This document shows, one piece after another, positions 3,933-23,382 of a DNA stretch of 24,000 bases. A model generated the notes under the pieces. It had not been told where the DNA came from, did not search any database, and saw only the letters and a list, made by a program, of their open reading frames with translations. This stretch comes from Microbacterium schleiferi (GTDB taxonomy: Bacteria > Actinomycetota > Actinomycetes > Actinomycetales > Microbacteriaceae). Location: contig NZ_JBBWSA010000013.1 of assembly GCF_038150145.1 (NCBI RefSeq), positions 27,957 through 51,956 on the forward strand. The letters are read 5' to 3'. Position 1 is the first letter of the stretch. The number at the start of each line of letters is the position of its first letter. Both the position numbers and the translations under genes were made by a program.

Positions 3933-3964
3933 CTGCGCCCGAGACCGACGACGAAGGACAAGAC

Positions 3965-7921: not shown

Positions 7922-8730
7922 GTTCGGCATCCGTATCGGTGCGGGGGGTCGGTTTCTCCTACCCGTCCGGCACTGCCGTGCTGCACAGCATCGACCTCGA
8001 GATCGCCGCCGGCGAGCGGGTGGCGGTGCTCGGGCCGAACGGAGCGGGCAAGACGACGCTCATGCTCCATCTGAACGGCATACACCTTCCCGATCGCGGA
8101 GTCGTGGAGATCGGCGGCACACCGGTGGGCCGAGGGTCGCTGCCCGAGATCCGCCGCCGAGTGGGCGTCGTCTTCCAAGACCCCGACGACCAGCTCTTCC
8201 TCCCGACAATCGGGGAGGATGTCGCATTCGGTCCCGGAAACTACGGCGTGCGCGGGCCGGAGCTGGAGTCGCGGGTCACCGAGGCTCTGACCCGGGTTGG
8301 ACTCGAGCACCATCGAGACACGGCGCCCGGTCGGCTGTCGCTTGGCCAGCGACGCCGCGCGGCTATTGCGACGATCCTGTCGATGGATGTGGAGGTCATC
8401 GTGCTCGACGAGCCGACCTCCAACCTCGACCCTGCCGCCCGTCGAGATTTGTCCGCGACCCTCGGTGCACTCGACGCCACGATCATCGTGGTGACCCACG
8501 ACCTGCCCTACGCCCTCGAGCTCTGCCCTCGGTCGGTGATCCTCGACGAAGGTCGAATCGTCGCCGACGGCACGACAACCGACATCCTCTCCGACGCCGA
8601 CCTGCTGAGCGCGCACGGCCTCGAGCTCCCGTGGGGGTTCGATCCGCGAGCGCCCCGTCCACCCCGTACCGGCGCGACCGGCCACGGCTCGGCGCCAGAT
8701 CAGGTCAGGATGCCGCGAGCCGAGCGTTGA
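7918..8730 (+). CDS. cbiO: ECF transporter ATPase CbiO (ABC ATP-binding protein)
   Basis: Walker A GPNGAGKTT, Q-loop, signature LSLGQRRR, Walker B VIVLDEPTSNLD, H-loop VTHDL. ATG at 7918 overlaps the cbiQ stop. Confidence 0.9.
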   Translation: MSSASVSVRGVGFSYPSGTAVLHSIDLEIAAGERVAVLGPNGAGKTTLMLHLNGIHLPDRGVVEIGGTPVGRGSLPEIRRRVGVVFQDPDDQLFLPTIGEDVAFGPGNYGVRGPELESRVTEALTRVGLEHHRDTAPGRLSLGQRRRAAIATILSMDVEVIVLDEPTSNLDPAARRDLSATLGALDATIIVVTHDLPYALELCPRSVILDEGRIVADGTTTDILSDADLLSAHGLELPWGFDPRAPRPPRTGATGHGSAPDQVRMPRAER

Positions 8731-9454
8731 CCCGCGCGAGCTGGGCACTCACGCGAGCCTCGAGTCCCCCGGCGGTGTCGCCGTCGATGACCTCGGCCAC
8801 CGCACCCCAATGGATGGCAACCTTCTCGCCGGCCGTCGCGGTGTCGCCGAAGGGGACTGTGACGTCCCGCTCGGCGTTCGCATCGTCGGAGTCATCGAGC
8901 GCGAGAACGCCCTCGCGATAGACCAGTCGCGGTCCGCGCACGCGCCAGCGTGTGGCATCCGCGTGCATGACCGTGGCAGGCAGGATCGCGCACGACTCCA
9001 ACACCTCGACGGGCTCGGGCCGACCGGTGCTGAGCAACCGCGTCCAGGGGTACACCCCGAAGACGTGAAAGGCGTGATGGGGAGCCGCTTCGGCGGCCAG
9101 AGACTCGTCAAGGTATGCCCAGTACGACCCGGCGCGCGGACCGATGATCGCCAGCAACTCACGCCAGAAGACGGCGGGATCGATGGCGTCGCCCTCGACA
9201 GAACCTGTCCAGTACGCCCGCACCGCCCGCTCATCGAGCGGATCGCACGCGAGAAGGCGCCCGATGACCGTCAGATACGGCCACGCGCCCGAGAAGCGGG
9301 TAGCCGCCCCCCGGACGTCCACCCCAGCGCCCTCACCGCTCGCCACCTCCGCGAGCAGGGGTGCGCCATCGGGGCCGCAGTAGCCCTTCTCGTTCGGGTG
9401 GTACGCGTAGCGCGCGAACAGTCGCTCCCCGTGCGGTCTCGAGTCGGCGCTCAC
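8705..9454 (-). CDS. Uncharacterised conserved protein, last gene of the hydrogenase maturation operon (possibly a DUF6390-type family; unverified)
   Basis: The GTG at 9454 forms a GTGA overlap with the hypD stop. 249 aa (VSADSRPHGERLFARYAYHPNEKGYCGPDGAPLL...). Only the last 250 codons of ORF 8705..10474 are credible, because the rest is antisense or out of frame to hypD. Confidence 0.6.
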   Translation of the reverse strand: MSADSRPHGERLFARYAYHPNEKGYCGPDGAPLLAEVASGEGAGVDVRGAATRFSGAWPYLTVIGRLLACDPLDERAVRAYWTGSVEGDAIDPAVFWRELLAIIGPRAGSYWAYLDESLAAEAAPHHAFHVFGVYPWTRLLSTGRPEPVEVLESCAILPATVMHADATRWRVRGPRLVYREGVLALDDSDDANAERDVTVPFGDTATAGEKVAIHWGAVAEVIDGDTAGGLEARVSAQLARVNARLAAS

Positions 9455-10581
9455 ACGCGGGCCACGGCCTGGGCCGCCTCCCGGTGGAGCCGACCGAAGT
9501 TGTAGTACGCGGCGCATGCGCCTTCGGGCGAGACCATGCACGTACCGATCGGGGTCTCGGGGGTGCACGCGGTGCCGAACACCTTGCACTCCCACGGCTT
9601 GATCACACCCCGCAGGACGCTGCCACATTCGCACGCTGGCGGGTCCTCGACCCGCACGCCGGGCAGCGCGAACTTCTTCTCGGCGTCGAATCGTTCGTAG
9701 TCGGGGTGGATGCCGTACCCAGACCGTGGGATGTAGCCGAGGCCCCGCCACTCGAACGTGTCGCGCACCGCGAAGACCTGCTGCATGAGCGCCAGCGCGG
9801 CAGGGTTCCCTTCGCGCCGCACCACCCGCGCGTACTGGTTCTCGACTTCGCAGCGGCCGTCCTCGAATTGCGCCAGCAGCATCTCGACAGACTGCAGGAT
9901 GTCGAGCGGCTCGAACCCGGTCACCACGATGGGAAGTCCATACTCGGCGGGGATGAAGTCGTAGACCGTCGTCCCCACCACCGTCGAGACGTGTCCGGGA
10001 CCGATGAAACCGTCGAGGTCGAGGTCGTCGGCATCCAGGATCGCGCGCAGCGGCGGTTCGATCAGGACGTGATTGCAGAAGATCGAGAAGTTCTTGATCG
10101 CGAGCGCTGCAGCACGAGCGATCGTCACCGCCGTCGACGGTGCGGTCGTCTCGAAACCTACCGCGAAGAACACGACCTCTTTGTCGGGGTTGTCGATGGC
10201 GATCTTCAGGGCATCCAGCGGCGAGTACACGAAGCGGACGTCGGCACCCGCTGCCTGCGCCTGCAGGAGGCTGCCCTCGGTGCCGGGAACGCGCATCATG
10301 TCGCCGAAGGTCGTGAAGATCACTCCGGGCCGATGCGCGAGCCACACCGCGTCGTCGACGCGTCCCATCGGGATGACGCACACCGGGCATCCGGGACCGT
10401 GCACGAGTTGCACGGCCTCGGGAAGAAGGTGCTCGAGCCCGTGCCGATAGATCGTATGGGTGTGACCGCCGCACACCTCCATGAACGACAGCGTGCGACC
10501 GAGGCGCTGCGTCTGCGCCTCGATGACACCGAGCAGCGAGCGGGCCGCAGCGGGGTCGCGGAACTCATCGACGAAACGCAT
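9451..10581 (-). CDS. hypD: [NiFe]-hydrogenase maturation protein HypD
   Basis: 376 aa. Motifs: MRFVDEFRD, FMEVCGGHTH, GPGCPVCV, FETTAP, GPGHVS, and C-terminal Cys motifs (CECG, CTPETPIGTCMVSPEGACAAYY). Confidence 0.95.
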   Translation of the reverse strand: MRFVDEFRDPAAARSLLGVIEAQTQRLGRTLSFMEVCGGHTHTIYRHGLEHLLPEAVQLVHGPGCPVCVIPMGRVDDAVWLAHRPGVIFTTFGDMMRVPGTEGSLLQAQAAGADVRFVYSPLDALKIAIDNPDKEVVFFAVGFETTAPSTAVTIARAAALAIKNFSIFCNHVLIEPPLRAILDADDLDLDGFIGPGHVSTVVGTTVYDFIPAEYGLPIVVTGFEPLDILQSVEMLLAQFEDGRCEVENQYARVVRREGNPAALALMQQVFAVRDTFEWRGLGYIPRSGYGIHPDYERFDAEKKFALPGVRVEDPPACECGSVLRGVIKPWECKVFGTACTPETPIGTCMVSPEGACAAYYNFGRLHREAAQAVARV

Positions 10582-10853
10582 CAGACGATCTCCGTTTCCA
10601 TGAAGGCCTCGAGCTCTTCGTCGTATGTTCGCCCGAGCTTTCGGATCTGGTCGAGGGTGACATCCGCCTCGCGCTCGTCGATCTTGCTCATCGCGAAGCC
10701 GACGTGAACCAGCACCCAGTCCCCGACTCCGACATGCTCGTCGGCAAGCAACCGCGTGGAGATGACGCGGCGAACACCACTGACCTCGACCGACGCGAGG
10801 TGTTCGTCGGCATCGACGACCTCGACGATCTCACCGGGGATTCCGAGACACAT
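10581..10853 (-). CDS. hypC: [NiFe]-hydrogenase assembly chaperone HypC
   Basis: 90 aa starting MCLGIPGEIVEV (essential Cys2). The ATG at 10853 is preceded by AAGAGAGG. Its stop overlaps the hypD start by 1 nt. Confidence 0.9.
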   Translation of the reverse strand: MCLGIPGEIVEVVDADEHLASVEVSGVRRVISTRLLADEHVGVGDWVLVHVGFAMSKIDEREADVTLDQIRKLGRTYDEELEAFMETEIV

Positions 10854-10867
10854 GACTGACCTCTCTT

Positions 10868-11992
10868 TCAGCAGATCCGGGGAAGGGGGTCGCCCACGAG
10901 CATGTCGACGATGCGGGTGCCACCGAAGGCGTTGCGCACCGCCACGATGTCGGAGGGACTCGCGACAACTTCGCCGATGATGGCGGCACTGTCGCCGCCG
11001 GGAAGTGCCCGTAGGGCAGCGAGCCCGGCATCCGCGACATCGGCGGGAACGACCGCGGCGAACATCCCCTCGTTGGCGACGTAGAGGGGATCGATCCCGA
11101 GCATGTCGCACGCGCCGCGAACCACCGGCGCCACCGGCAGGGCTTCGTCGTCGACGATCACTCCGCACCCGGATGCCTGTACGAGCTCGTTGAGCACGGT
11201 GCCAAGGCCCCCACGGGTGGCGTCTCTCATCCAGCGGGTCTGCGGCGCGGCATCCAGCAGAGCCTCGACGAGTCCGTTCACGGCACGGGAGTCGGACGAG
11301 ATCTCGGCGTCGATCGCGAGGTTGCCCCGCGCGAGCATGACGGCCATTCCGTGGGCGCCGATGGCACCTGACACGAGGATGCGATCGCCCGGTTCGACGA
11401 GGTCGGCTCCGAGTCGGCGACCTTCGGGGAGCACCCCCACCCCGGCTGTCGTGATGAAGAGCTTGTCGGCAGCGCCCCGGGGGACGACCTTGGTGTCGCC
11501 CGCGACGATCGCCACGCCCGCCGCGTCGGCTGCAGCCCGCATGTCGGCGGCGATCTCGCGGAGTGTCTGGACAGGAAGCCCCTCTTCGATGACGAAAGCC
11601 GCGGTGAGTGCGGTGGGCACCGCACCGCTGACGGCGAGGTCGTTGACGGTGCCGTTGACGGCAAGGTCGCCGATGCTCCCGCCGGGGAAGCGGATCGGGT
11701 TGACAACGTACGAGTCGGTGGTCATCGCGATGCGTCCCGCCGGCCGGTCCAGGACTGCAGCGTCGCCCGGGTCGCCCGGCGTGGGAGAGCCGAATGCTTC
11801 GAAGAAGACGGCGTCCACGAGCGCCGCAGAGGCCTTCCCCCCTGCTCCGTGCGCCAGGGTGATCACCTCGTCGATCAGCCGCGGGCGGCGCCGGCGGAAT
11901 GCTTCGATGCGGGCGAGGACCTCGTCCTCCGACTCATTGAGCCGGTTCTTTCCGCGCCGGACAGTGTCGGCTGCGGCGGAATCGGTGGTCAT
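10868..11992 (-). CDS. hypE: [NiFe]-hydrogenase maturation protein HypE (carbamoyl dehydratase)
   Basis: 374 aa with a PurM-like fold (TLAHGAGGKAS, TTDSYVV, VNDLAVSGA) and the diagnostic C-terminus ...GDPLPRIC. The ATG at 11992 is in an ATGA overlap with the upstream gene. Confidence 0.95.
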   Translation of the reverse strand: MTTDSAAADTVRRGKNRLNESEDEVLARIEAFRRRRPRLIDEVITLAHGAGGKASAALVDAVFFEAFGSPTPGDPGDAAVLDRPAGRIAMTTDSYVVNPIRFPGGSIGDLAVNGTVNDLAVSGAVPTALTAAFVIEEGLPVQTLREIAADMRAAADAAGVAIVAGDTKVVPRGAADKLFITTAGVGVLPEGRRLGADLVEPGDRILVSGAIGAHGMAVMLARGNLAIDAEISSDSRAVNGLVEALLDAAPQTRWMRDATRGGLGTVLNELVQASGCGVIVDDEALPVAPVVRGACDMLGIDPLYVANEGMFAAVVPADVADAGLAALRALPGGDSAAIIGEVVASPSDIVAVRNAFGGTRIVDMLVGDPLPRIC

Positions 11993-12633
11993 GACATCAC
12001 CTCCGCGGCGATCGGGACGGGCACCTCGGGCGGCAGCGGCACCGAAGCGATCGCCATCCCGGCGTGGATGAGCACGAGGTCGCCCGGCCTGACGTGTCCG
12101 AGGATCGTGACATCGACATCCTCCTCGCCGTCCGCAGTACGTACGCGCGCCGGAGCAAACAGGACGGGTGGAGCCGCGAGGACCTCTCCGAGTCGACCTT
12201 CGTCGCTGCAAGTAATACAGACCTCGTCCGTGCACTCCACGATGGCCGGCTGCAGCGCGGCGGGGTCTGCTCGCAGGTCGTCGGCGAGGGTGAGGATGCC
12301 GGGCACGACGACCTCAGGATCGCCGGCGACACACACGGTGGCCACGCCATCGGCAGGACGCTGCGCATCCCCTACCCAGATCCCCGCGACTCCCCATGCT
12401 GGAAGTCGGGCCAAGAGCTGGTCCCGGTCGGCGAAGGCGCCCACGATGATCGCGGCGTCGCCCGATCGCGCGGTGGCTCGCAGAATCTCGACCGCGTCGG
12501 CCTGCCCCACCTCCCGGACACCGGAGAGCGCTGAAGAGTCCACGCCGATGACGTGCACAGCGCCACCGAGCACCTGGGCGCGGGCCACGTGGACGGCGGC
12601 GATCCGCAGGTCGCTTGCAGGCGCGGCGCTCAC
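11989..12633 (-). CDS. Uncharacterised two-domain protein: unknown N-terminal alpha/beta-like domain fused to a C-terminal HypC/HupF-like domain with an internal CxxC
   Basis: GTG at 12633 (GTGA overlap with the upstream hypC-paralog stop). 214 aa. The C-terminal ~90 aa (EVCITCSDEGRLGEVL...VDVTILGHVRPGDLVLIHAGMAIASV) mirrors the HypC pattern (MC-x-x-P-G...GD-x-VLVHxGFA), but its Cys residues are internal. Confidence 0.6.
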   Translation of the reverse strand: MSAAPASDLRIAAVHVARAQVLGGAVHVIGVDSSALSGVREVGQADAVEILRATARSGDAAIIVGAFADRDQLLARLPAWGVAGIWVGDAQRPADGVATVCVAGDPEVVVPGILTLADDLRADPAALQPAIVECTDEVCITCSDEGRLGEVLAAPPVLFAPARVRTADGEEDVDVTILGHVRPGDLVLIHAGMAIASVPLPPEVPVPIAAEVMS

Positions 12634-12902
12634 AGCCCGATCCTCGCGTCGTGGGCAATCGCACCGTCGGCATTGACGACACCGGCATCCTGCATCGCGC
12701 TCATCACCTGGGTGACCTGATCGGCCGGAACGCGGGTGAGCGCAAAGCCGGCGTGCACGATGACGTAGTCGCCGACCTGGAGGTCGGGGAGGAAGTTGAG
12801 CTTGGCCGTTTTGGTCTCGCCGGCGAAGTCGATCTCGGCGACGATCGCGCCGTCGGGCTCGACCCAGCGGTCGGTGATCCTGCCCGGAATCGCAAGGCAC
12901 AT
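12630..12902 (-). CDS. hypC: Second HypC/HupF-family hydrogenase chaperone
   Basis: MCLAIPGRITDRW...VGDYVIVHAGFALTRV. The ATG at 12902 is preceded by AGGGGAG. An alternative GTG at 12911 (GTGA overlap with the hypF stop) would add MSP before the essential N-terminal Cys, so it is less likely. Confidence 0.85.
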   Translation of the reverse strand: MCLAIPGRITDRWVEPDGAIVAEIDFAGETKTAKLNFLPDLQVGDYVIVHAGFALTRVPADQVTQVMSAMQDAGVVNADGAIAHDARIGL

Positions 12903-12907
12903 CGGGC

Positions 12908-15295
12908 TCACTCCCCTCTGCCGGACGAGCCGGCAAGCATCAGGTGTCCGGCGAGGGCCTGCCCGAGGCTCAGGCCGCCGTCCCCGGCGGGAACCCGACG
13001 GTGGAGCATCATCGGGACCCCGTCGCGGGACAGTCTAGATCCGACCTCGTTCAGCAGCACGCGGTTTTGTGCGACGCCGCCGGTGATGCCCGCAACGTCG
13101 GCGCGGCCAGAGCTGACGAGGTCGGTGAGCGCGGTGGCGATCCAGGCAGCGACGCCGTCGTGGAACCTCCGCGCCAGACACGCGACCGGTTGTCCCGCAC
13201 GCATCCGCTCAACGATGTCGGCGACCATCGCGGGCAGATCGGCTGCGGCATCCGGGTGCCCGCCGTGCTCGCAGGCGCCCGCAGCTGCCTCGAGCTCCAT
13301 CGCCGCCTGGGCTTCGTAGGTGATGCGATGACGGATGCCGAGAATCGCCGCGACGGCGTCGAAGACCCGCCCGAGACTTGAGGTCGCGATCACGCCGACG
13401 GGCTCCGCGGAATCCAGCTGTGCATGCACGAGAGCCAGTTCCGCGGGTGGAGCATCGGCGGCGACGGGGATGCCGGTGTCATCGATGCCCCAGTCGCGCA
13501 GCAGCCCGACTGCGACGCGCCAGGGTCTGCGGGCAGCGGTGTCCCCACCGACCAACCGGAAGCGTGGGACGTGCGCGACGCGCTCGTATTCGAGCGGGTC
13601 GGCCCCGACGAGCAGGATCTCGCCACCCCAAATGGTGGAGTCCTCACCCCACCCGGTGCCGTCGACGGCGGCCACCGCGACCCGGGTGCCGAGCGCGCCG
13701 TGTTCGGCGACAAGACTCAGGGCGTGCGCGTGGTGGTGCTGGACCTGCACGAGAGAGATCCCGGTCCGATCCGCATGCCGCTGCGCCCACCGCGTTGTCG
13801 CGTAATCGGGGTGCAGATCGGCGACCAGAAGAGCCGGCGAACTGCGATGCAGCGCCTCGAACTGTGCGACGCCCCGCTCGAAAGCATCCTGGCACGCGAG
13901 CGAACCCATGTCTCCGACGTGGGGCGACAGGAACGCCCGGTCATCGCGCACGATCGCGAACGTGTTCTTGAGTTCGCCTCCGACAGCGAGGACCACGCCA
14001 CCGCCGGACGAGGCTGAGAGACGGATCGGTAGCGGCGCGTACCCGCGGCTCCGACGAATCGGAATCAGGTCGCCGCCTGCGCCACCGGCGAGCAGGACCG
14101 AATCCTCGACGGGAACGTGGATACCTCGGTCGTTCGTGAGGAAGAGGTCGGCGATCCCGCCGAGCAGCTCGAAAGCGTCGTCCTCGCGGAAGCACAGCGG
14201 GTCACCTGACACGTTGCCGCTGGTTGCCACCACGACGTCTGTCGGATTCAGCAGGATCTCATGCACCGCGGCGGAGGGGAGCATGATGCCTATCCGCGAC
14301 AGCCCGGGAGCCACGGACGGCGCGAGATCGGCATCCGTCGCTGCATCGGCGATGACAATGGGACGGGCAGGCCCCGTCATCTCGCGGGCCGCGGCCGCGT
14401 CGAGGTGCGCGATGCGCGATGCCTCCTCGATCGAACCGGCCATCACCGCGAAGGGCTTGTCGGGACGGCGCTTACGCTCCCGCAACCGGCGGACGGCAGC
14501 GTCGCTGCGGGCATCGCACATCAAGGTGTAGCCGCCGAGGCCTTTGACCGCCACGATGCGCCCGTCCCCGAGAGCACGTCGCGCGGCGGCGAGCGCCTCC
14601 GTTCCGGTACTCACGGGACTCCCAGCGGCATCCGTCAGCGCGAGAGTAGGTCCGCAGTCGAAGCAGCTGATCGGTTGGGCGTGGTAGCGCCGATCGAGGG
14701 GATCCTCATACTCGGCGCGGCAGGCTGCGCACATCGGAAAGACCGACATGGTCGTCAGCGGCCTGTCGTAGGGGAGGTCACGGATGATGCTCAGCCGTGG
14801 TCCGCAGTTCGTGCAGGTGATGAAGGGGTAGCCGAAGCGCCTGTCATCCGGGTCTCGAAGCTCGCGGCGGCAGTCGTCACAGCATCCGACGTCGGGCGGG
14901 ATGAGGGTGCGCACGCCGTCCGCACGGCGGCTCTCGACGATCCGGAAGTCGGCCTCCCCCGGGATGGTGTCGCGATCCGCGGTGGTCATTTCGTCGATGA
15001 CAGCGAGGACTGGCGCATGCTCACGCACCTCGCGCAGAAAGTTTGCGACGGCGGCGGCAGTCCCCTGCGCCTCGATGAAGACGCTCTCGTCGTCGTTGCC
15101 GCACCATCCGGTCACGCCGTGCGCGGCAGCGATTCGCGAAACGTGCGGGCGAAACCCGACACCCTGCACGACACCGCGCACCGTCGCGGCTACGCGGACG
15201 CTGGGCACGACGACAGCGCGCAGGCGCGCCGTGTCAGTGCCCGCCGCAGCCACAGCCCTCGGGGCCGCATGCGCCGGCCCCGGTCCCGCAGGCAC
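12908..15295 (-). CDS. hypF: Carbamoyltransferase HypF
   Basis: Acylphosphatase domain (VRGVVQGVGFRP), two zinc-finger CxxC pairs (CDDCRRE...CTNCGPR; CAACRAEY...CFDCGP), and YrdC-like and Kae1-like domains. The start is uncertain: GTG 15295 is the longest; GTG 15253 or GTG 15208 are alternatives. 15208 gives the N-terminal length most typical of homologs. Confidence 0.9.
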   Translation of the reverse strand: MPAGPGPAHAAPRAVAAAGTDTARLRAVVVPSVRVAATVRGVVQGVGFRPHVSRIAAAHGVTGWCGNDDESVFIEAQGTAAAVANFLREVREHAPVLAVIDEMTTADRDTIPGEADFRIVESRRADGVRTLIPPDVGCCDDCRRELRDPDDRRFGYPFITCTNCGPRLSIIRDLPYDRPLTTMSVFPMCAACRAEYEDPLDRRYHAQPISCFDCGPTLALTDAAGSPVSTGTEALAAARRALGDGRIVAVKGLGGYTLMCDARSDAAVRRLRERKRRPDKPFAVMAGSIEEASRIAHLDAAAAREMTGPARPIVIADAATDADLAPSVAPGLSRIGIMLPSAAVHEILLNPTDVVVATSGNVSGDPLCFREDDAFELLGGIADLFLTNDRGIHVPVEDSVLLAGGAGGDLIPIRRSRGYAPLPIRLSASSGGGVVLAVGGELKNTFAIVRDDRAFLSPHVGDMGSLACQDAFERGVAQFEALHRSSPALLVADLHPDYATTRWAQRHADRTGISLVQVQHHHAHALSLVAEHGALGTRVAVAAVDGTGWGEDSTIWGGEILLVGADPLEYERVAHVPRFRLVGGDTAARRPWRVAVGLLRDWGIDDTGIPVAADAPPAELALVHAQLDSAEPVGVIATSSLGRVFDAVAAILGIRHRITYEAQAAMELEAAAGACEHGGHPDAAADLPAMVADIVERMRAGQPVACLARRFHDGVAAWIATALTDLVSSGRADVAGITGGVAQNRVLLNEVGSRLSRDGVPMMLHRRVPAGDGGLSLGQALAGHLMLAGSSGRGE

Positions 15296-15701
15296 CCGTC
15301 GGGGCGGCGCTCGGCCCGCGCAACAGCGATTCGAGACTCACGAACGCTACGGGACGAGCGCTCGCCGTCGGCGCCGGCGCCGTCGCCTCGGCGGTGGCTG
15401 CGGGGTCCGGCATCCGGATGATTCCGTGCATGCCCAGCAGCATCCGCACTGCCGGATCGTCGACGAGGTCAAAGAGGAGCTCCTTGCCACGTGGGTCTTC
15501 CCGCAGAGCCCGCACGATCGTGGTGAGCGCCTCCTTTGAGAGAGCGTCAAGGGCCAGCGCGAACTCTTCAGCCACGGCACGACTGTCGGGATCGAGCCGG
15601 CTGATGGCAGCGACAGCCGCATCCAGTCTCGAGGCAGTCGTTTCGAGGGTTGCAGCCTCTGGAGTGTCAGTGTCTCGCGTGTGAGTGTCGAGCATCGTCA
15701 T
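15234..15701 (-). CDS. Uncharacterised hydrogenase-associated protein with a C-terminal Cys/Gly-rich tail (possible metal or Fe-S binding accessory protein)
   Basis: The ATG at 15701 is preceded by GGGGAGG at a 6-nt spacing. 155 aa with a helical core (ALDALSKEALTTIVRALREDPRGKELLFDLVDDPAVRMLLGMHGII). The tail is GACGTGAGACGPEGCGCGGH, which holds the only 4 Cys of the protein. Confidence 0.6.
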   Translation of the reverse strand: MTMLDTHTRDTDTPEAATLETTASRLDAAVAAISRLDPDSRAVAEEFALALDALSKEALTTIVRALREDPRGKELLFDLVDDPAVRMLLGMHGIIRMPDPAATAEATAPAPTASARPVAFVSLESLLRGPSAAPTGACGTGAGACGPEGCGCGGH

Positions 15702-15735
15702 CGGATACCTCCCCATTCGTTCCGGCGTGCGGGCG

Positions 15736-16920
15736 TCATGCCGGGCTCCCCGCCGCCACCAGTTGGTCACGGAGGTCACGCACGATCGCGGCCGAGTTCT
15801 CATCGCCCTTCGAAGCGAACAGGAACTCCGCCTCATCGAACCGCCCCCGTGCATCGTCAAGGAGTCCGAGATGGGCAAGCGCATTCCCTTGGTTCGAGAG
15901 CACCCGGGCGCGCCCGAGAGCGTCCTTCTTCGGCGATCGGGTGCGTAGCACCACTTCGTAGAGGTCCACAGCTTCCATGAGGTTGTCACGCTGGCGCGCG
16001 GACGGCGCGTACACCAGCGCGTTGGCGAGATTCAGACGAGCGCTGGCCCATTCCTCGGCGTCGTCTTTCTCATCGAGCAGTCGGGCCGCCGTGCGCAGGG
16101 ACTGGATCGCGATCCCCACACGCAGCATGTCGGCATCCGACATGACGGGCGCCGCCAGGTACGCAGTGCCGAGGTTGAGATGTACGCGGGCGAACAGGGG
16201 CCGGTTCTCGCCCTCATCAAGGTGCCGGAGCGCCTCGGTGTAGCCCTGGATCGCTTCGGTGAGAGAGCGCCGCCCCTCGATCGCCATTCCGTGGACAAGG
16301 CCCGCGCGGTGGTAAAGAGCCTCGGCGTACGCGGCGCGGAGGTCGGTGCCCTTCAGCAGCGCGACTGCCTCGTCGGCATCGGCAAGATTGTGTCCACGAC
16401 CGGCGAGTTCGCTGAGGATGACGCCCGCGAACGCGGGAGCGACGCCGCGGACGTGGTCGGCGGCGGCGCGTAGACATTCGACAGCCTCGTTCTCGTCGCC
16501 GTCATCGAGCGCATGGGCTGCCTGCGCGGTGAGGATCAGTGCGGCAACCTCGCCGGTGGAGCTGCCGACCTCGGGCGGGATGCTGGTCTGCCCGAGCGTG
16601 AAGGCGACATGGTCGACGAGCGGCCGCCACTGGTCCCCGAGCGCGGCAGTGACATCGGTTCGCGCAATGCTGTCAGGGTCGACGACGAAGAGGTTGTAGC
16701 GGTCGACGGGACGGTCGGATGCCGCGAAGACCGCGGCAGCATCCTCGACTCGTCCCTCGTAAGCCAGACGCACCCCTTCGAGCGCGGCGGGCCAGCTCTC
16801 GGGCAGGCGACCGGCAAGCAGCGACTGCCGCGCGGCATCCGTGTCGTCGCCGGCGACCAGCAGCAGACCGGCCGGCAGGGCGAACGCTCCGAGGGGCTGT
16901 GGGCGGTCGATCTCGGTCAT
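15736..16920 (-). CDS. TPR-like repeat protein, hydrogenase-associated, function unknown
   Basis: The ATG at 16920 is in an ATGA overlap with the upstream small ORF. 394 aa. The C-terminal half has TPR-like helical pairs (VHLNLGTAYL, ARLNLANALVY, VLSNQGNALAHLGLLDDA). Confidence 0.7.
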   Translation of the reverse strand: MTEIDRPQPLGAFALPAGLLLVAGDDTDAARQSLLAGRLPESWPAALEGVRLAYEGRVEDAAAVFAASDRPVDRYNLFVVDPDSIARTDVTAALGDQWRPLVDHVAFTLGQTSIPPEVGSSTGEVAALILTAQAAHALDDGDENEAVECLRAAADHVRGVAPAFAGVILSELAGRGHNLADADEAVALLKGTDLRAAYAEALYHRAGLVHGMAIEGRRSLTEAIQGYTEALRHLDEGENRPLFARVHLNLGTAYLAAPVMSDADMLRVGIAIQSLRTAARLLDEKDDAEEWASARLNLANALVYAPSARQRDNLMEAVDLYEVVLRTRSPKKDALGRARVLSNQGNALAHLGLLDDARGRFDEAEFLFASKGDENSAAIVRDLRDQLVAAGSPA

Positions 16921-17231
16921 CGGGAACCCTCTTCGGTGATGGTCAGGCGGCGGCGCTTTCGCGACCATTGTGCTCCCACGAAACCAACCGGGTAGTCATC
17001 GGCGAGCGCTTCACGCAGGAGAACGCTGCGGTCGCCCGCGACGTTGCGTTGCTTGAGCATCAGTCCACCGGATGCGGCGACGCCGACCGGCATCACCACG
17101 ATCTCGCCGGTGGGTGCACGAAGGGCGGCGATCCGGTCATCCGGGAAGTGGGCGCGAGCGAAGTCTGCGGGAAGGCGCAGGTGCCCCTCGGGAGTGAACT
17201 CGACGGTCACCTGCTCGACGTCCTCAGTCAT
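16917..17231 (-). CDS. Small (104 aa) uncharacterised protein, hydrogenase-associated
   Basis: The ATG at 17231 overlaps the protease stop by 8 nt, and its own stop overlaps the TPR gene start. The codon bias is coding-like and I recognised no motif. The N-terminal VTVEFTPEGHLRLPADFARAHF is faintly AbrB/MazE-like. Confidence 0.55.
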   Translation of the reverse strand: MTEDVEQVTVEFTPEGHLRLPADFARAHFPDDRIAALRAPTGEIVVMPVGVAASGGLMLKQRNVAGDRSVLLREALADDYPVGFVGAQWSRKRRRLTITEEGSR

Positions 17232-17787
17232 CGACCTGCTCCTCCAGGTCGGCGATGCGCTCCTGCACGATCCCGAGCGCCCGCTCGACCGCCGCGTCCA
17301 CGACCGGGCTCAGGGGCGCACCGAAGGCGAAGGAACCGCCCTCGATGAGCAGGACGTCGATGTCAGCCGGCATGAGCGGCCCCAAGAGCCACCGGCCGAA
17401 GGCGATCGCGTGATCCCACCGGAAGTCATGGCTTCCCATCGCACCGGCGGGCGGGAGTTCCGCGACGACATCTCCGGGAACGGCGAACAGGGTCCCGGGC
17501 TCGGCGCCGGTACTGGACGCATCGATGATGAGGACCCGGTCGGCGTGACGCATCTCGAACGCGACGCCCATCCCACTGGTGCCCCCGTCGGCAATCCGAA
17601 CCGTCTCCGGCACGGGCCCGGCCTCCCACAGCCGCCTGATCAGGACTGGACCTGCCGCGTCGTCCCCACGCAGGATGTTCCCGCATCCGATGATCAACAG
17701 CTCGACGCGCGAACTCTCGTCACCGTCGTCGATCAACCGCCACGGCTCGACCGCCTCGTCGGTATGAACGGCCGCGCCCGCCTTCAC
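17224..17787 (-). CDS. hupD: Hydrogenase maturation endopeptidase (HupD/HybD/HupW family)
   Basis: The GTG at 17787 is preceded by GAGGGA at a 6-nt spacing, 14 nt after the large-subunit stop. Motifs: LLIIGCGNILRGDDAAGP, IADGGTSG, VLIIDA, SHDFRW. Confidence 0.85.
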   Translation of the reverse strand: MKAGAAVHTDEAVEPWRLIDDGDESSRVELLIIGCGNILRGDDAAGPVLIRRLWEAGPVPETVRIADGGTSGMGVAFEMRHADRVLIIDASSTGAEPGTLFAVPGDVVAELPPAGAMGSHDFRWDHAIAFGRWLLGPLMPADIDVLLIEGGSFAFGAPLSPVVDAAVERALGIVQERIADLEEQVDD

Positions 17788-17801
17788 CTCTTGTCCCTCG
17801 C

Positions 17802-19412
17802 TCAACACATGTTGTTGATGACGAACGACGACATCTCTCGCCCCGTCTTGCCGTCGTAGGCGTGCACCGTGCACACGAGGCACGCGTCGAAGCTACGGGT
17901 GACGTGGCCGAGCTCGACGGGGTCTTCCAGGTCGTAGACGGGAGCCCCGATCAGCGCCTTCTCGATCGGTCCGACGACGGCATCCTTATCGCGCGGCCCG
18001 ATGTTCCACGCGCTCGGAGTGATGACGTTGTAGTTCGCGATCTTGCCGTCCTCGATGACGATCCAGTCCTGCAGCGCGCCGCGGGCAGCCTCCGTGCCGC
18101 CGTAACCGCGCGCCGACACCGGGTCGGTGGGCTCGGCGAAGAACGAACCGTGCAGGTCGATCTGGTTCAGCCAGTTCTTCACGAGCTTGTAGTACTTCGC
18201 AGCCTCGTGCATCCGCGCGAGCTGGCGCACCAGGACCGAGGGTCCCTTCTTGGCCATGACGTCGGTGAACAGCGGATCGTAGTCCTGGAAGTCCTTCGTC
18301 TGCGGCTTGCCCGCAACGACCTGCCGCGCGAGTGGTCCGGCTTCCAGTGGCAGCCGGCCGACCCCGGGCACGTCATAGCGCGGAGCCTTGGCGAAGGAGT
18401 ACTTGTCTTGCTTGGCGCCGAGCTCGGGGTCGATCGCGTTCTGCTCCCCGTCGAAGGGATGCACGACGTCATCGCCGCGATAGAAGGAGTGCGCGACATC
18501 CTCGCTCACCCGCGCCTGGTCGTACTCGTGGTGCGCGCCGTTCGCGTAGACACCCGAGCGCACGACAAGTGCATCGTTGCGGCCCTCGATCGTGGGGTGA
18601 TCGTAGGAGGCCGGGTCGAAGTAGGTACCGGCGGCGATGTAGTTGCCCCATCCCTGCCCGTACAGGTCAAGCCCGATGTCCAAGGCGTAGCGGATGAAGA
18701 ACCCGCAGTCAGAGTCGCGGTGGGCGTCGCTCTCGTCGACCCAGGCCAGGATGTCTTCCCACGTCTTGTTCTCGAGCCACCGGTCGACGGTGCAGCCGAG
18801 CCACTGCTTCTCGAGCCACGCGTTCTTCCAGTTGTCAAGGATCGCGTGCGAGCGGGTCACGTCACTGAGGGTCGGAGCGCCCATGATGCCACCGGGAACC
18901 ATGAAGGACGAGTGCGGCCACTGACCGCCGAAGATCGCGTAGATTTCGACGGGCTTCTGGCTGAGCACGACGCCCGGCTGGTAGCTCGTGCCGACGTAGG
19001 CCGAGAACCTCCGGCAGGCCTCGTCGTAGAGGGGCGAGTTCTTGTACTTCTCGTGCGTGAGGTCGATCGCGAAGATCGCGTAGAAGTAGCGCGGAATCGA
19101 CTGCAGGGTCTCGACCGCCTGCCCGATGTTGCGAACGAGCGTCGCGTTGTGGGGGACGAACGTCTGGAACGCGGTATCCAACGCGTAGCACGCCTTGTAG
19201 AGGTGGCTGCCGCCGCAGATCCCGCAGATGCGGGGCGTCATGATCAGGCCCGCGCGCATGTCCTTGCCCCGCAGGATCGTTTCGAACCCGCGGAACATCA
19301 TGGCCTGCGTCCAGGCATCCGTCACGACACCGTCTTCGATGGTGACGCGCACGTCCAGGTCGCCCTCGACGCGGCCGAGGGGGCTGACGTGCAGATCGAC
19401 GGTAGAACTCAT
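17802..19412 (-). CDS. [NiFe]-hydrogenase large (catalytic) subunit, uptake type; Huc/HupL-like by size and motifs
   Basis: ATG at 19412 with a GAAAGG SD. 536 aa. N-terminal Ni-binding motif TPRICGICGGSH (C63, C66). C-terminal RSFDACLVCTVH (C511, C514, H517), followed by a 19-aa tail that would be the endopeptidase substrate. Confidence 0.95.
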   Translation of the reverse strand: MSSTVDLHVSPLGRVEGDLDVRVTIEDGVVTDAWTQAMMFRGFETILRGKDMRAGLIMTPRICGICGGSHLYKACYALDTAFQTFVPHNATLVRNIGQAVETLQSIPRYFYAIFAIDLTHEKYKNSPLYDEACRRFSAYVGTSYQPGVVLSQKPVEIYAIFGGQWPHSSFMVPGGIMGAPTLSDVTRSHAILDNWKNAWLEKQWLGCTVDRWLENKTWEDILAWVDESDAHRDSDCGFFIRYALDIGLDLYGQGWGNYIAAGTYFDPASYDHPTIEGRNDALVVRSGVYANGAHHEYDQARVSEDVAHSFYRGDDVVHPFDGEQNAIDPELGAKQDKYSFAKAPRYDVPGVGRLPLEAGPLARQVVAGKPQTKDFQDYDPLFTDVMAKKGPSVLVRQLARMHEAAKYYKLVKNWLNQIDLHGSFFAEPTDPVSARGYGGTEAARGALQDWIVIEDGKIANYNVITPSAWNIGPRDKDAVVGPIEKALIGAPVYDLEDPVELGHVTRSFDACLVCTVHAYDGKTGREMSSFVINNMC

Positions 19413-19429
19413 GTGCTGGGCCTTTCGGG

Positions 19430-20401
19430 CTAGACGACGAACATGTCTTCTTTGGACCACTTGGGGGCGGAGATCCGCGCCGCGGCAGCCATGGCCATGT
19501 AGGTGACGTGGTCCTCTCCGGGCGGGAGGTCCTTCGGGATGGCGCCGGCGATCAGCTGCGTCTTGAAGACGGAGCCCGGCATGAGGTCGGCGAACGGGAA
19601 CTCGGGCTCCGTGCATCCGAGGCACGGCATGCCCGCGCGGGTCTTGGAGGACTGGCGGTTCCACAGGATGCGGTTGCACGGCGCGTGGGTCATCGGCCCG
19701 CGGCATCCGAATTCGTAGAACAGGCATCCGGTGCGCGTGCCCTCACCGAAGCTCATCGTGGACTGCTTGAACTCGAAGAAGGTGTTGCGGGTGCAGCCGT
19801 TGTGCACGAACTGGGTGAAGAAGGTCTGGGGCCTGTTCAAGTCATCCAGTGCGATGTCTCCGACGCGGCCCGTGGCCAGCGCAACGATGATCTGCGTGAT
19901 CCAGTCGGGGTGGGCGGGGCAGCCGGGGATGTTGATGACGGGAAGTCCCGACTTGCTGCGCCAGTCGGCGCCGAGGAACCCGCCCTTGGCCTTGCGGTGG
20001 AACTGCAGACCGGTCGAGTCACTCGGGTTGGGTGCGACGGCGGGAAGCCCGCCGAAGCAGGCGCAGTCGCCGATGGCCACGACGATGGATGCCGCCTCGG
20101 CGAGCTCGGTCACCCAGTCCTTCATGGGGCGGTCGGCGAACATGTCGAAGCGGCCCGTGCCGTCGGGGCCTTCGATCACGGTCCCTTCGAACACGAAGAT
20201 GTCGAGCGGCCGCTTGCCCTCGGCGCAGTCTTTGAAGATCTTCTGGGCGTTCTTGCCCATCTCAAGGCCCGTCGTCGGGTGCCAGAGAATCTCCAGCCCG
20301 AAGTCGACAATGAGATCGACCACGCTCGGCTCATCCGCGTTGAGGAACGACATCGTGTTCCCCGAACACGCCCCGCCCTGCAACCACAGCACGCTGGTCA
20401 T
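19430..20401 (-). CDS. [NiFe]-hydrogenase small (Fe-S) subunit, no Tat signal peptide
   Basis: 323 aa, starting directly at the mature-domain motif MTSVLWLQGGACSGN. Further motifs: GDCACFGG, NIPGCPAHPDW, HNGCTRN, GCLFYEFGCRGP, PCNR, PCLGCTEP. ATGA overlap with the upstream gene. Confidence 0.95.
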   Translation of the reverse strand: MTSVLWLQGGACSGNTMSFLNADEPSVVDLIVDFGLEILWHPTTGLEMGKNAQKIFKDCAEGKRPLDIFVFEGTVIEGPDGTGRFDMFADRPMKDWVTELAEAASIVVAIGDCACFGGLPAVAPNPSDSTGLQFHRKAKGGFLGADWRSKSGLPVINIPGCPAHPDWITQIIVALATGRVGDIALDDLNRPQTFFTQFVHNGCTRNTFFEFKQSTMSFGEGTRTGCLFYEFGCRGPMTHAPCNRILWNRQSSKTRAGMPCLGCTEPEFPFADLMPGSVFKTQLIAGAIPKDLPPGEDHVTYMAMAAAARISAPKWSKEDMFVV

Positions 20402-21000
20402 GCCTGCTCTCCTTCCGTTGCGGTGGTCTCTCCCTCTGCACGGAGGGAGCGACCGAGTTCCTTGACGATCCGCAGCGCGAAGGCAAGCCCTCGCCTGACA
20501 TCCGGATCGCGGGTCATGCCGCTGATCGCGATGATGCTCGGCGGCTTCTGCTCAGCCTCGGCCTGCGCCTGCTCGGTGGCGCGACTCACGCCGCCGGCCA
20601 GCCTCGTCAGCAGATCGAGAAGCGCTGGGTCGAGCAGGCCCGAGGACCCGATCTTCTCGACGAGATCGGCATCGGCCACGTGCTCCAAGACGGGAATGGC
20701 CTGGTCGGCGACCTTCAGGAGCGCAGGGCCGGCTGCCACTGCCCGCTTACCGACCGGACTCTCGGTGACCATCGCCACGGCTTCGTGGTAGCTGGTCGCG
20801 ACGTTCTCGACGATGTTGTCGGAGTGCGCGAAGAAGCCGCCCACGACGTCGAGGAGCCCCGCGACGAGCTCCGCGTTGTCGAGCAGGTGGTTGAGGGCAG
20901 CGACGGTCTCTGGATCACCGAGCCGCTGGCGAAGGCGCTCGGCCTCGATGTCGGCGCCTGTGATCATCTTCGCGTCGTCCGGCGAGAGCACAGTGCTCAT
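20398..21000 (-). CDS. DUF1641-like helical protein, first gene of the hydrogenase operon; candidate third hydrogenase subunit or scaffold
   Basis: The ATG at 21000 is preceded by GGAGGA at a 6-nt spacing. 200 aa and predicted helical. The C-terminal block PPSIIAISGMTRDPDVRRGLAFALRIVKELG resembles the DUF1641 signature. Its stop overlaps the small-subunit ATG (ATGA). Confidence 0.7.
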   Translation of the reverse strand: MSTVLSPDDAKMITGADIEAERLRQRLGDPETVAALNHLLDNAELVAGLLDVVGGFFAHSDNIVENVATSYHEAVAMVTESPVGKRAVAAGPALLKVADQAIPVLEHVADADLVEKIGSSGLLDPALLDLLTRLAGGVSRATEQAQAEAEQKPPSIIAISGMTRDPDVRRGLAFALRIVKELGRSLRAEGETTATEGEQA

Positions 21001-21123
21001 ACGGCGTCCTCCGATCGGGGCACTCCGCGACGAGGTGCCCTGGCATGAATGTATCCCTGGCGCCCGGTGCATAGCATCCGGAATGCGCAGGGTTTATCCT
21101 CAGAGCGATCCTCTGGAGGACAT

Positions 21124-22110
21124 ATGGTTCGTCCCCTCCGCACGCCGCCAGCCCTGGCGAGTGCCCCGTCGGTGCGCACCGACGACCCGCGGCGTCTCGC
21201 CGGTGAACTCGGTGCTCTCCTGGGCGAGGGCACCGTCGCCGTCCACGACAACCGCGCGAGCCTCGACGGCGCGCTGTTCACCCGCAGCTTCGACACGATC
21301 TCGTTGGGATACCTCGACATCGGCACCCCGACCACCATCGACATCCCGGTCACTGCCGACGCCGTCACGGTCTGCATGAACCAGGGCGGAGCGCTCACGG
21401 CGCGCGTAGACGGAGTCACAGTGCACACCACGACGGTCCAGGCGATCGTGCTCTCACCGCGCACCGCGGTGCGGCTGGAGATGACTCCCGAATCTCCCCA
21501 GCTCCTCGTCCGGCTCGAGCGGCACGCCGTGGAAGCCGCCGTGGCTCGCACCCTCGGCCGACGCGTCAGCGAACCACTGCGATTCGAGCCCTTGTTCGAT
21601 CTGAGCTCTCCCGAAAGCATCCGGTGGAGCATCGCGGTGCAGCTGCTGAGCACCGAATCCATGACCGATTCGTCGCTGCTGACCCTGCCCCTGGGTCGAC
21701 AGAGCATCGCCGACCTCCTGGTCGCATCCCTGCTCCTCCTGCAGCCCTCGAACTACTCCAACTCCCTGAGGCGACAGGCAACGTCGGGTCTCATGGTCGA
21801 CGCCCTCGCCTACATCGAGCAGCATCTGGCCGAGCCCTTCTCGCCGGCGGCCCTTGCCCACGCGGTGCATGTCTCCCCGCGCCATCTGCAGCAGACCTTC
21901 CGCGACCGCCTGGGCACAACGCCGTCAGGATACGTTCGCGACCAGCGACTGCAGCGGGTGCGCATCGATCTGACGGATGCCGACCCCAGGCGCGGCGCGA
22001 CAGTCGCGGGGATCGCACAGCGGTGGGGGTTTACCCACGCCGGCCGGTTCGCGAACGAGTACCGCGACCGCTTCGGAGAATCGCCCTCTCGCACCCTTCG
22101 CGGCGCGTGA
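21124..22110 (+). CDS. AraC-family transcriptional regulator (N-terminal effector domain plus C-terminal dual HTH)
   Basis: The ATG at 21124 is preceded by TGGAGGA. 328 aa. C-terminal AraC HTH: ALAHAVHVSPRHLQQTFRDRLGTTPSGYVRDQRL...IAQRWGFTHAGRFANEYRDRFGESPS. It is divergent (123 bp) from the hydrogenase operon. Confidence 0.85.
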   Translation: MVRPLRTPPALASAPSVRTDDPRRLAGELGALLGEGTVAVHDNRASLDGALFTRSFDTISLGYLDIGTPTTIDIPVTADAVTVCMNQGGALTARVDGVTVHTTTVQAIVLSPRTAVRLEMTPESPQLLVRLERHAVEAAVARTLGRRVSEPLRFEPLFDLSSPESIRWSIAVQLLSTESMTDSSLLTLPLGRQSIADLLVASLLLLQPSNYSNSLRRQATSGLMVDALAYIEQHLAEPFSPAALAHAVHVSPRHLQQTFRDRLGTTPSGYVRDQRLQRVRIDLTDADPRRGATVAGIAQRWGFTHAGRFANEYRDRFGESPSRTLRGA

Positions 22111-22161
22111 TCACCCTGGCGCGTTCCGCCGGAGCGCCGATTGGATCTAGGGTGAGGGCAT

Positions 22162-22175
22162 CCCCACCGGTGGGG
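22162..22175. promoter_or_regulatory. 14-nt perfect GC-rich palindrome CCCCACCGGTGGGG immediately upstream of the hypA SD
   Basis: Read directly from the sequence: ccccacc/ggtgggg at 22162-22175, 12 nt before the hypA ATG. Its function (operator or RNA structure) is unknown. Confidence 0.3.
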
Positions 22176-22187
22176 TCGGAGGGCCGG

Positions 22188-22568
22188 ATGCACGAGCTGT
22201 CGTTGTGCCGATCGATCGCTGCGATCGCTGAGCGTTCGAGCGCGGGCCGCCCCGTGCTCTCGATCCAGCTCGATGTCGGTCAGCTCCGCCAGGTGGTGCC
22301 CGAGACGCTCGTGTATTGCTGGGGCATCGTGTGCGAGAACTCGCCGTCGTTGTCTGGATCGCGGCTCGAGGTGACCTCGATCCCGGCCATCGTCACGTGC
22401 CGCGAGTGCACCACCGATTCGACGATCGAGGGAGTGCCGATCCTGGTCTGCGCGTCATGCGGAAGTGGATCGGTGGTCGTACGATCTGGGGAGGAATTCC
22501 TCGTCCGGTCAATGGAGGTCGGCGAAAAGGAAGGGAAGACCGATGGGTCGCTTTCACCGCCACGATGA
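22188..22568 (+). CDS. hypA: Hydrogenase nickel-insertion metallochaperone HypA
   Basis: N-terminal MHELSLC (Ni-binding MHE motif). Zinc site CRECTT...CASCGS. A GGAGGG lies upstream. 126 aa; the last 26 nt overlap hypB. Confidence 0.85.
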   Translation: MHELSLCRSIAAIAERSSAGRPVLSIQLDVGQLRQVVPETLVYCWGIVCENSPSLSGSRLEVTSIPAIVTCRECTTDSTIEGVPILVCASCGSGSVVVRSGEEFLVRSMEVGEKEGKTDGSLSPPR

Positions 22569-23382
22569 CGGAACCGTGCACGCTCACGATCACCACGATG
22601 ATGGTCACACGCACGAGCACTCGCACGAAGATCACGACCACGCGCATGATCACGTGCACGAAGACCACATCGGTGACCACTCCGGATACGAGACGGGCGC
22701 CGAGCGGATCGACGTGCTCGAGCGGATCTTCAGCGAGAACGATGCGGCGGCTGATCGCAACCGCCGGGCCCTGGATGCCGCATCCGTCGTCTCGATCAAC
22801 CTGATGTCATCTCCGGGCGCCGGCAAGACGACGCTGCTGGAACGGACGCTCGCGGAGTTGGAGGGGCGCGTGCGCGTCGGGATCGTGGAGGGCGACATCG
22901 AGACAGCCCTCGACGCCGATCGACTCGACGGCTACGGAGCGCAGATCTCGCTCTTGAACACCGGAAACGGCTTCGGCGGCGAGTGCCACCTTGACGCACC
23001 GATGGTCGACCGGGCTCTGCGTGGTCTCGAGCTCGAGGACCTCGACCTCGTCGTGATCGAGAACGTCGGCAACCTCGTGTGCCCCGCCGAGTTCGACACC
23101 GGGGCTCACTATCGCGCGATGGTCGCATCCGTCACCGAGGGCGAGGACAAGCCCCTGAAGTACCCGGTGATGTTCCGGTCGGTGGACGTGGTCGTCGTGA
23201 ACAAGACCGACCTGCTCCCCTACCTCGACTTCGACCTCGACCTGTTTCTCGCGAACGTCCGTGCCGTAAACCCCACAGCACGGATCATCCTCACAAGCGC
23301 GAAGGCAGGCGACGGCCTCGCCGACTGGTTCTCCTGGATCGCGGAGATCACGGCGCCGGCCACCGCTGCCGCCCGGGGCTGA
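22543..23382 (+). CDS. hypB: Hydrogenase nickel-incorporation GTPase HypB with a His-rich N-terminal region
   Basis: P-loop SSPGAGKTTLL, ENVGNLVCPA, NKTDLL. 17 His within residues 5-46. The ATG at 22543 is preceded by AAAAGGAAGGGAAG. Confidence 0.95.
   Translation: MGRFHRHDDGTVHAHDHHDDGHTHEHSHEDHDHAHDHVHEDHIGDHSGYETGAERIDVLERIFSENDAAADRNRRALDAASVVSINLMSSPGAGKTTLLERTLAELEGRVRVGIVEGDIETALDADRLDGYGAQISLLNTGNGFGGECHLDAPMVDRALRGLELEDLDLVVIENVGNLVCPAEFDTGAHYRAMVASVTEGEDKPLKYPVMFRSVDVVVVNKTDLLPYLDFDLDLFLANVRAVNPTARIILTSAKAGDGLADWFSWIAEITAPATAAARG

Follow-up and report, generated by a model that had tools for sequence, protein, structure and literature searches.

A Microbacterium schleiferi gene directly upstream of hucS is very probably hucM, encoding a divergent orthologue of the third subunit of the Huc [NiFe]-hydrogenase

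The closest described counterpart of the locus studied here is the Huc hydrogenase of Mycolicibacterium smegmatis, whose third subunit, HucM, co-purifies with HucSL and whose 833-kDa oligomer is lost, with activity kept, when hucM is deleted (PMC10017518). The cage that holds four HucS2L2 lobes is built from residues 20–79 of four intertwined HucM chains, residues 80–189 form a tetrameric coiled-coil tube that has a hydrophobic lumen and extends to the membrane, and menaquinone is proposed to pass through this tube to the acceptor site on HucS (PMC10017518). The menaquinone (MK-9) site itself is made up of HucM residues 63–78 and HucS residues 298–311 (PMC13433803). In the literature, HucM is treated as a DUF1641/HMP protein (PMC13524794, PMC13433803), and the name "helical membrane plugin" is used for proteins of this family (PMC13433803). 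What is known for this orthologue means that the role of HucM is no open problem at the level of the family. Here we describe a candidate HucM gene in a stretch of 24,000 nucleotides from Microbacterium schleiferi (the window), the relevant features of which are collected in Table 1.

Table 1. Features of the hucM locus, in positions of the window; residue numbers in the first seven rows refer to the 200-aa product.
Feature	Coordinates	Strand	Remarks
hucM ORF	20398..21000	-	200 aa + TGA; helical DUF1641/HMP-family protein, very probably the third Huc subunit
N-terminal block, residues 21–79	20764..20940	-	putative counterpart of HucM 20–79; matches 7utd_Q
Helix, residues 62–77	20770..20817	-	aligned to HucM 63–78 of the menaquinone site
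C-terminal region, residues 80–187	20440..20763	-	putative counterpart of the HucM stalk/tube; aligned to HucM 80–185
DUF1641/HMP domain, residues 147–184	20449..20562	-	PF07849
Aliphatic tip PPSIIAISGM, residues 153–162	20515..20544	-	located where mycobacterial HucM has its Trp-containing membrane tip
Acidic low-complexity tail AEGETTATEGEQA, residues 188–200	20401..20439	-	13 residues, net charge -4
Shine-Dalgarno sequence GGAGGA	21007..21012	-	6-nt spacer to the ATG at 21000; read from the sequence
ATGA overlap of hucM stop and hucS start	20398..20401	-	sequence reads GC-ATGA
TACATT, candidate -10 element of the huc operon	21048..21053	-	conserved in 4/4 aligned relatives
hucS, group 2a small subunit, no Tat leader	19430..20401	-	631 bits, full length, to HucS 7uur_D
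hucL, large subunit	17802..19412	-	536 aa from the ATG at 19412; 866 bits to HucL 7uus_A
AraC-family regulator gene, divergent	21124..22110	+	Pfam match
hypA, then hypB, after the AraC-family gene	about 22188-22568 (hypA)		Pfam matches

A preliminary description of this DNA had placed a 200-aa ORF with a strong Shine-Dalgarno sequence at the head of an operon and had its stop overlapping the ATG of the small-subunit gene, and each of these points is borne out. The frame runs from an ATG at 21000 to a TGA at 20400–20398. This start is supported because GGAGGA precedes it with a 6-nt spacer and because the Met encoded at 21000 is also the start in all close homologues of the product; the Shine-Dalgarno sequence is kept as GGAGG in two relatives (L036 and L041). 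The longest open frame at the locus extends to an ATG at 21072 and would encode 224 aa. We rejected this longer version, which is without a Shine-Dalgarno sequence, whose homologues begin at the Met of the 200-aa product, and which would cross the conserved promoter-like region of the spacer upstream. At the other end of the gene, the ATG of hucS (20401–20399) shares its last two letters with the TGA of hucM; the identical 4-nt overlap is present in two relatives (L039 and L041), and a third (L040) has a 44-nt gap.

Upstream lies an AraC-family gene that has its supported start at the ATG at 21124 and points away from hucM across a 123-bp spacer, which makes hucM the first gene of the hydrogenase operon. 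A hexamer in this spacer, TACATT, fits TANNNT and is possibly the -10 element of the huc operon, a role assigned by inference only; scanning the 123-bp divergent region for sigma-70 and terminator consensus sequences returned nothing. That hucM is a real gene under purifying selection follows from its GC content at codon positions 1, 2 and 3 (0.74/0.45/0.83) and from dN/dS values of 0.02–0.08 in three of four comparisons with Microbacterium orthologues, the remaining one showing synonymous differences only. The product is 99% identical to the corresponding proteins of both M. schleiferi JCM 9175 and Microbacterium sp. NPDC076895.

The preliminary description had proposed the product as a candidate third subunit or scaffold, and had left undecided whether it is a homologue of HucM or a DUF1641 partner unrelated to it. 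The first proposal is supported by homology over the whole length of HucM. A phmmer search of PDB sequences matched 7uus_Q, the 188-aa M. smegmatis HucM (record title "[NiFe]-Hydrogenase Huc Membrane Associated Subunit"), at E 1.9e-8 with a collinear alignment of query residues 21–183 to HucM 22–185, and it also matched the 60-residue modelled N-terminal HucM fragment 7utd_Q (E 8.3e-7, query residues 21–74). With a profile of 20 family sequences, the match to 7uus_Q reached E 3.5e-34 over the full length; the same profile matched YjlC/Ncp (9snk, 9pxk) and ForE1 (8rqz) in the C-terminal part only, at about 1e-7. Pfam DUF1641 (PF07849, now "HMP") was detected as well, with 42.2 bits against a gathering cut-off of 21, covering residues 147–184; for comparison, the mycobacterial-type HucM of a relative in the same class (L011) scores 47.6 bits on this model and 143 bits to 7uus_Q. 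Since HucM is itself a DUF1641 protein, the proposed either/or dissolves: it was a false choice, and one protein carries both labels. A search of NCBIfam gave no model for the product, and hucM is the only DUF1641 gene in this genome.

The DUF1641 superfamily pairs with several different oxidoreductases (PMC13524794, PMC8808070), and we therefore considered that the protein might be a generic DUF1641/HMP partner of some other quinone reducer, such as a ForCE-like formate dehydrogenase or an NDH-2/Ncp-like enzyme, encoded beside the hydrogenase by chance. The weak C-terminal matches to ForE1 and YjlC could be read in this way. However, the N-terminal block is peculiar to HucM and can be aligned with 7utd_Q, the fragment that binds HucSL, the ForE and YjlC matches at E ~1e-7 fall far behind that to HucM and are confined to the C terminus, and the gene order and the ATGA overlap with hucS recur in relatives, so we regard a chance neighbour of this kind as very unlikely. 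Membership of the ForE/YjgD or Ncp/YjlC subfamilies was rejected on the C-terminal extent of the match and on the hydrogenase genes next door. We conclude that the ORF is very probably hucM. Its product would be the third structural subunit of a [NiFe]-hydrogenase of group 2a (Huc-type), high in affinity and insensitive to O2, and would most likely work as in M. smegmatis.

The partners of the protein have a Huc identity of their own. HucS is ~80% identical to HucS of M. smegmatis, HucL has the same length as its counterparts in relatives (likewise 536 aa), and hucL is the only NiFe large-subunit gene in this genome; judged by their sequences, HucS and HucL are clear orthologues of the Huc (group 2a) subunits. 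The arrangement of the AraC-family gene, hypA and hypB recurs in four relatives (L039–L042), and the cluster is rich in maturation genes (hupD and hypA–F). Such company would also suit a factor that assists assembly or maturation of the hydrogenase transiently and is not a stable subunit of it. We give this reading almost no weight, given that the orthologue is a stoichiometric part of a purified and solved complex (PMC10017518) and that the protein resembles no Hyp/Hup maturation family in Pfam or NCBIfam.

The conserved blocks of a structural HucM subunit are both present in the protein. In the N-terminal block, L23, R26, L27, P30, L36, L39, L40 and I63 are near-invariant across 20 family members, and from this alignment, residues 21–79 appear equivalent to the HucM cage that binds the HucS2L2 lobes. 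The helix at residues 62–77 may contribute to quinone binding by analogy with its solved counterpart; within it, I63 is nearly invariant throughout the family, and N66 and V67 are invariant within the close clade only. The C-terminal helix of HucS, its counterpart at this site in M. smegmatis, is nearly unchanged here. In the C-terminal region, residues 82–108, 111–119, 125–147 and 166–194 form amphipathic helices, with the fourth extending into the acidic tail; their hydrophobic moments (0.39–0.58) were reached by no more than 3% of shuffled sequences, a test made at the level of sequence. At the DUF1641 end, D165 and G183 are invariant, and D167, R170 and F174 are nearly so.

The overall composition agrees with the preliminary description, which had noted an absence of Cys, an acidic low-complexity tail and a predicted alpha-helical fold. 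The 200-aa product contains neither Cys nor Trp. Its calculated pI is 4.7, its net charge is -13, and its last residues are AEGETTATEGEQA. An AF2 single-chain run with an eight-sequence alignment returned an all-helical secondary structure at a pLDDT of 39, with a three-dimensional model that was unusable; a poor model is unsurprising when the subunit is elongated, belongs to an intertwined tetramer and has a shallow alignment.

By analogy, the mechanism published for M. smegmatis most likely applies to Microbacterium HucM, so that tetramer formation, scaffolding, membrane docking and quinone conduction would all be expected in this organism. Four HucM chains would intertwine, with their N-terminal blocks (residues ~21–79) making a cage for four HucS2L2 lobes and the helix at residues 62–77 adding to a menaquinone site at the C-terminal helix of HucS. 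The C-terminal amphipathic helices (residues 80–187) would assemble into a tube with a hydrophobic lumen, and the DUF1641/HMP end of this tube would dock on the cytoplasmic face of the membrane. Docking would let menaquinone reach the distal FeS cluster by diffusion and come back in reduced form.

The membrane-facing end is where the protein departs from M. smegmatis HucM. The basic, Trp-bearing membrane-contact tip of M. smegmatis HucM is absent here, and the aliphatic segment in its place, which has a mean hydrophobicity of 0.81 over residues 156–162, may be what inserts into the membrane. The region from residue 147 to 187 carries a net charge of +3, and the tail of opposite charge follows directly. 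Five other short members of alignment A1 have a tail of similar composition; mycobacterial-type HucM proteins and 7uus_Q lack the acidic tail.

These differences raise the question of whether the protein is an orthologue of HucM that keeps its scaffolding role in the oligomer but has a modified or regulated interaction with the membrane. The acidic tail and the aliphatic tip would then affect how, or even whether, the stalk docks on the anionic membrane, for instance if the tail bent back onto the basic DUF1641 end. The replacement of the Trp- and Arg/Lys-rich segment of 7uus_Q by PPSIIAISGM, the juxtaposition of a -4 tail with a +3 domain, and the retention of acidic composition in the close clade would all fit such a change. 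However, the tip Trp is not conserved across the family: in alignment A2 it is limited to mycobacterial-type members, most other members have aliphatic or aromatic residues there, and Ncp has Phe (PMC13524794). The tip Trp is therefore a lineage trait and does not define the family. In addition, C-terminal tails occur in many family members and vary in composition, a pattern that suggests a disordered, weakly constrained extension. We thus consider modified docking improbable, and we are equally doubtful of its most specific form, in which the acidic tail beside the basic DUF1641 end and the Trp-less aliphatic tip would constitute an electrostatic latch that gates both the docking of the Huc stalk on the membrane and its access to quinone. 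Were the latch real, the helical-membrane-plugin mechanism would exist here in a regulated form, within a hydrogenase cluster of lateral origin. An ordinary HucM remains the reading that we carry forward.

We examined the neighbourhood of hucM in a synteny sample of 401 genomes of the class, counting as HucS orthologues those matches with at least 69% identity and more than 330 bits. Our genome samples are draws from larger groups, and "not found" covers the genomes searched. The HucS scores were sharply bimodal, with matches in 19 genomes besides this one at 69% identity or above and all other matches at 131 bits or below, the latter being other hydrogenase groups. A full-length HucM match was found in 13 of the 19 HucS-bearing genomes. 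In all 11 genomes with both genes on one contig, hucM and hucS share a strand and hucM lies upstream, directly adjacent in eight and ~1.1 kb away in three, and in the remaining two of the 13 the genes were split by contig breaks. The six HucS genomes without a full-length match comprise one contig-end fragment and five genomes of a single genus, in which no DUF1641 protein was found anywhere in the genome; at the one annotated locus of this genus, hucS stands first, with hypB divergent from it. The order seen in the window, with AraC-hypA-hypB divergent from hucM-hucS-hucL-protease, is kept in relatives at 79%, 65% and 45% protein identity, and hucM precedes hucS-hucL in the same orientation in L039–L042.

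Genomes of Microbacterium species with the cluster numbered 5 of the 401 sampled, with near-identical scores, and no huc cluster was found in six other sampled members of the family Microbacteriaceae. The nearest HucS outside the genus in the class sample is 88% identical and comes from a different family. Because the cluster is rare in Microbacterium and its nearest outside HucS belongs to another family, these data suggest that the huc cluster was laterally acquired by a small Microbacterium clade.

The preliminary description had called the role of this protein uncharacterised in its lineage, which holds for Microbacterium itself but not for the orthologue, which is experimentally and structurally defined (PMC10017518). 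What would otherwise be annotated as a "DUF1641 hypothetical protein" thus becomes a specific, structurally understood subunit, and the small Microbacterium clade would have all three subunits of a Huc enzyme that scavenges atmospheric H2, with lateral acquisition as its most likely origin. We conclude that Microbacterium hucM is an ordinary, divergent orthologue of the already characterised HucM and opens no new question. A HucM this divergent (~28%) beside a HucS at ~80% helps to show where HucM is truly constrained: in the N-terminal L-x-x-R-L-x-D-P...LLD block, at I63 and in the RDPDV-RG-F-G motif.

Set beside known systems, the protein is closest to M. smegmatis HucM (MSMEG_2261; 7UUS/7UTD chain Q; PMC10017518). 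Microbacterium HucM has 200 aa and M. smegmatis HucM 188, both are all-helical without cofactor-binding Cys, both are encoded directly upstream of hucS, and they share the HucSL-binding block and the DUF1641 domain. They differ at the tip, where Microbacterium HucM has the aliphatic IIAI..M instead of Trp, in the fewer basic residues that precede the DPDV motif in Microbacterium HucM, and in its extra 13-residue acidic tail, which has no counterpart in the solved M. smegmatis protein. Gene context differs as well: in Microbacterium a divergent AraC-family regulator lies upstream, unlike in M. smegmatis, and hucM and hucS overlap by 4 nt, whereas in mycobacterial-type relatives the hucM match ends ~90–100 nt before the hucS match. 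Identity to mycobacterial-type HucM proteins (L009, L011) is only ~28–29%, and, as far as these sequence comparisons go, the HucM scaffold evolves much faster than the catalytic subunits.

More distant likenesses are found outside the hydrogenases. ForE (YjgD) of the Bacillus subtilis ForCE formate:menaquinone oxidoreductase (8RQZ; PMC8808070) shares the C-terminal DUF1641/HMP domain and the amphipathic helices preceding it (profile E 9.5e-7), and it too is a small helical partner linking a soluble oxidoreductase to membrane menaquinone (PMC8808070), but its N-terminal enzyme-binding block is dissimilar and its partner is a Mo-bisPGD formate dehydrogenase. Ncp/YjlC of the B. subtilis Ndh-Ncp filaments (9PXK, 9SNK; PMC13524794, PMC13433803) shares the DUF1641/HMP head (profile E 2e-7 to 6e-7) and forms a tetrameric hydrophobic tube delivering quinone (PMC13524794, PMC13433803); in contrast to HucM, it is Bacillota-specific, lacks the HucSL-binding block, has Phe108 at its tip and polymerises with NDH-2 into lipid-filled filaments. 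Finally, HysM of the Acidianus brierleyi group 2e hydrogenase, a complex that has been modelled only (PMC11018855), is archaeal and has a reported identity to HucM of ~18% (PMC11018855); likened here by description only, it resembles HucM as a tube-forming third subunit, in a related hydrogenase of high affinity.

The huc cluster was present in 5 of the 401 sampled Microbacterium species genomes and in none of the six other Microbacteriaceae sampled, and the closest HucS beyond the genus among the genomes sampled (88% identical) came from another family. On these sequence comparisons, its rarity within Microbacterium combined with the family placement of the nearest outside HucS suggests that a small M. 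schleiferi-like clade obtained the cluster by lateral acquisition. Within the clade to which this window belongs, the gene order AraC-hypA-hypB was kept. The short region separating hucM from the divergent AraC-family gene holds conserved blocks, shared with relatives whose proteins are as little as 65% identical and including a TACATT and repeated GGAT-containing motifs, and from their sequence we regard these blocks as candidates for promoter sites and for AraC operators.

The hyp genes are bordered distally by a 589-aa frame that matches DUF6390. Since this frame overlaps the hypD ORF, the real DUF6390 gene is probably shorter than 589 aa. Approximately 3 kb past the distal limit of the hydrogenase cluster lies a further group of genes, consisting of those of the glyoxylate shunt and a regulator.

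Features of the window and of one related locus (L015)
Feature	Position	Strand	Remarks
Regulator ORF	618-2921	opposite to glyoxylate-shunt genes	HTH and IrrE-type peptidase domain
Malate synthase and isocitrate-lyase-family gene	2271-5560	+	glyoxylate shunt
589-aa frame	8705-10474	-	DUF6390 match, 254 bits, residues 347-588
hypD ORF	9451-10581	-	overlapped by 589-aa frame
Whole huc/hyp cluster	8705-23382
hucM/AraC divergent region	21001-21123		123 bp
Conserved TACATT	21048-21053	-	possible -10
Double-block HucM-family gene	L015:1480-2388	-	genome G138; directly upstream of a hucS

HucS was also found apart from HucM. Five genomes of one actinobacterial genus carried a HucS orthologue with 73-75% identity (loci L026-L029, from genomes G163, G259, G365, and G307, and a fifth genome, G392), and no DUF1641/HucM gene was detected genome-wide in any of the five. 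At L026, the one locus annotated among these genomes, hucS comes first in the gene order, with a hypB-like gene running divergently from it. These data point to a Huc-type enzyme lacking the scaffold and membrane stalk in these genomes.

Among the best 150 HucM-family representatives, approximately half (many of the proteins P0010-P0157) had two matched stretches and a length of 260 to 310 aa, a few proteins of 370 to 520 aa had three to six, and one protein of 1445 aa had ten. We looked at the nature of the extra stretch in two family proteins (P0008 and P0009) and in the L015 protein, and in all three it duplicated the N-terminal HucSL-binding block, preceding a single DUF1641 end. We found no discussion of tandem HucSL-binding modules in the literature consulted; such modules could multiply the number of hydrogenase lobes carried per stalk.
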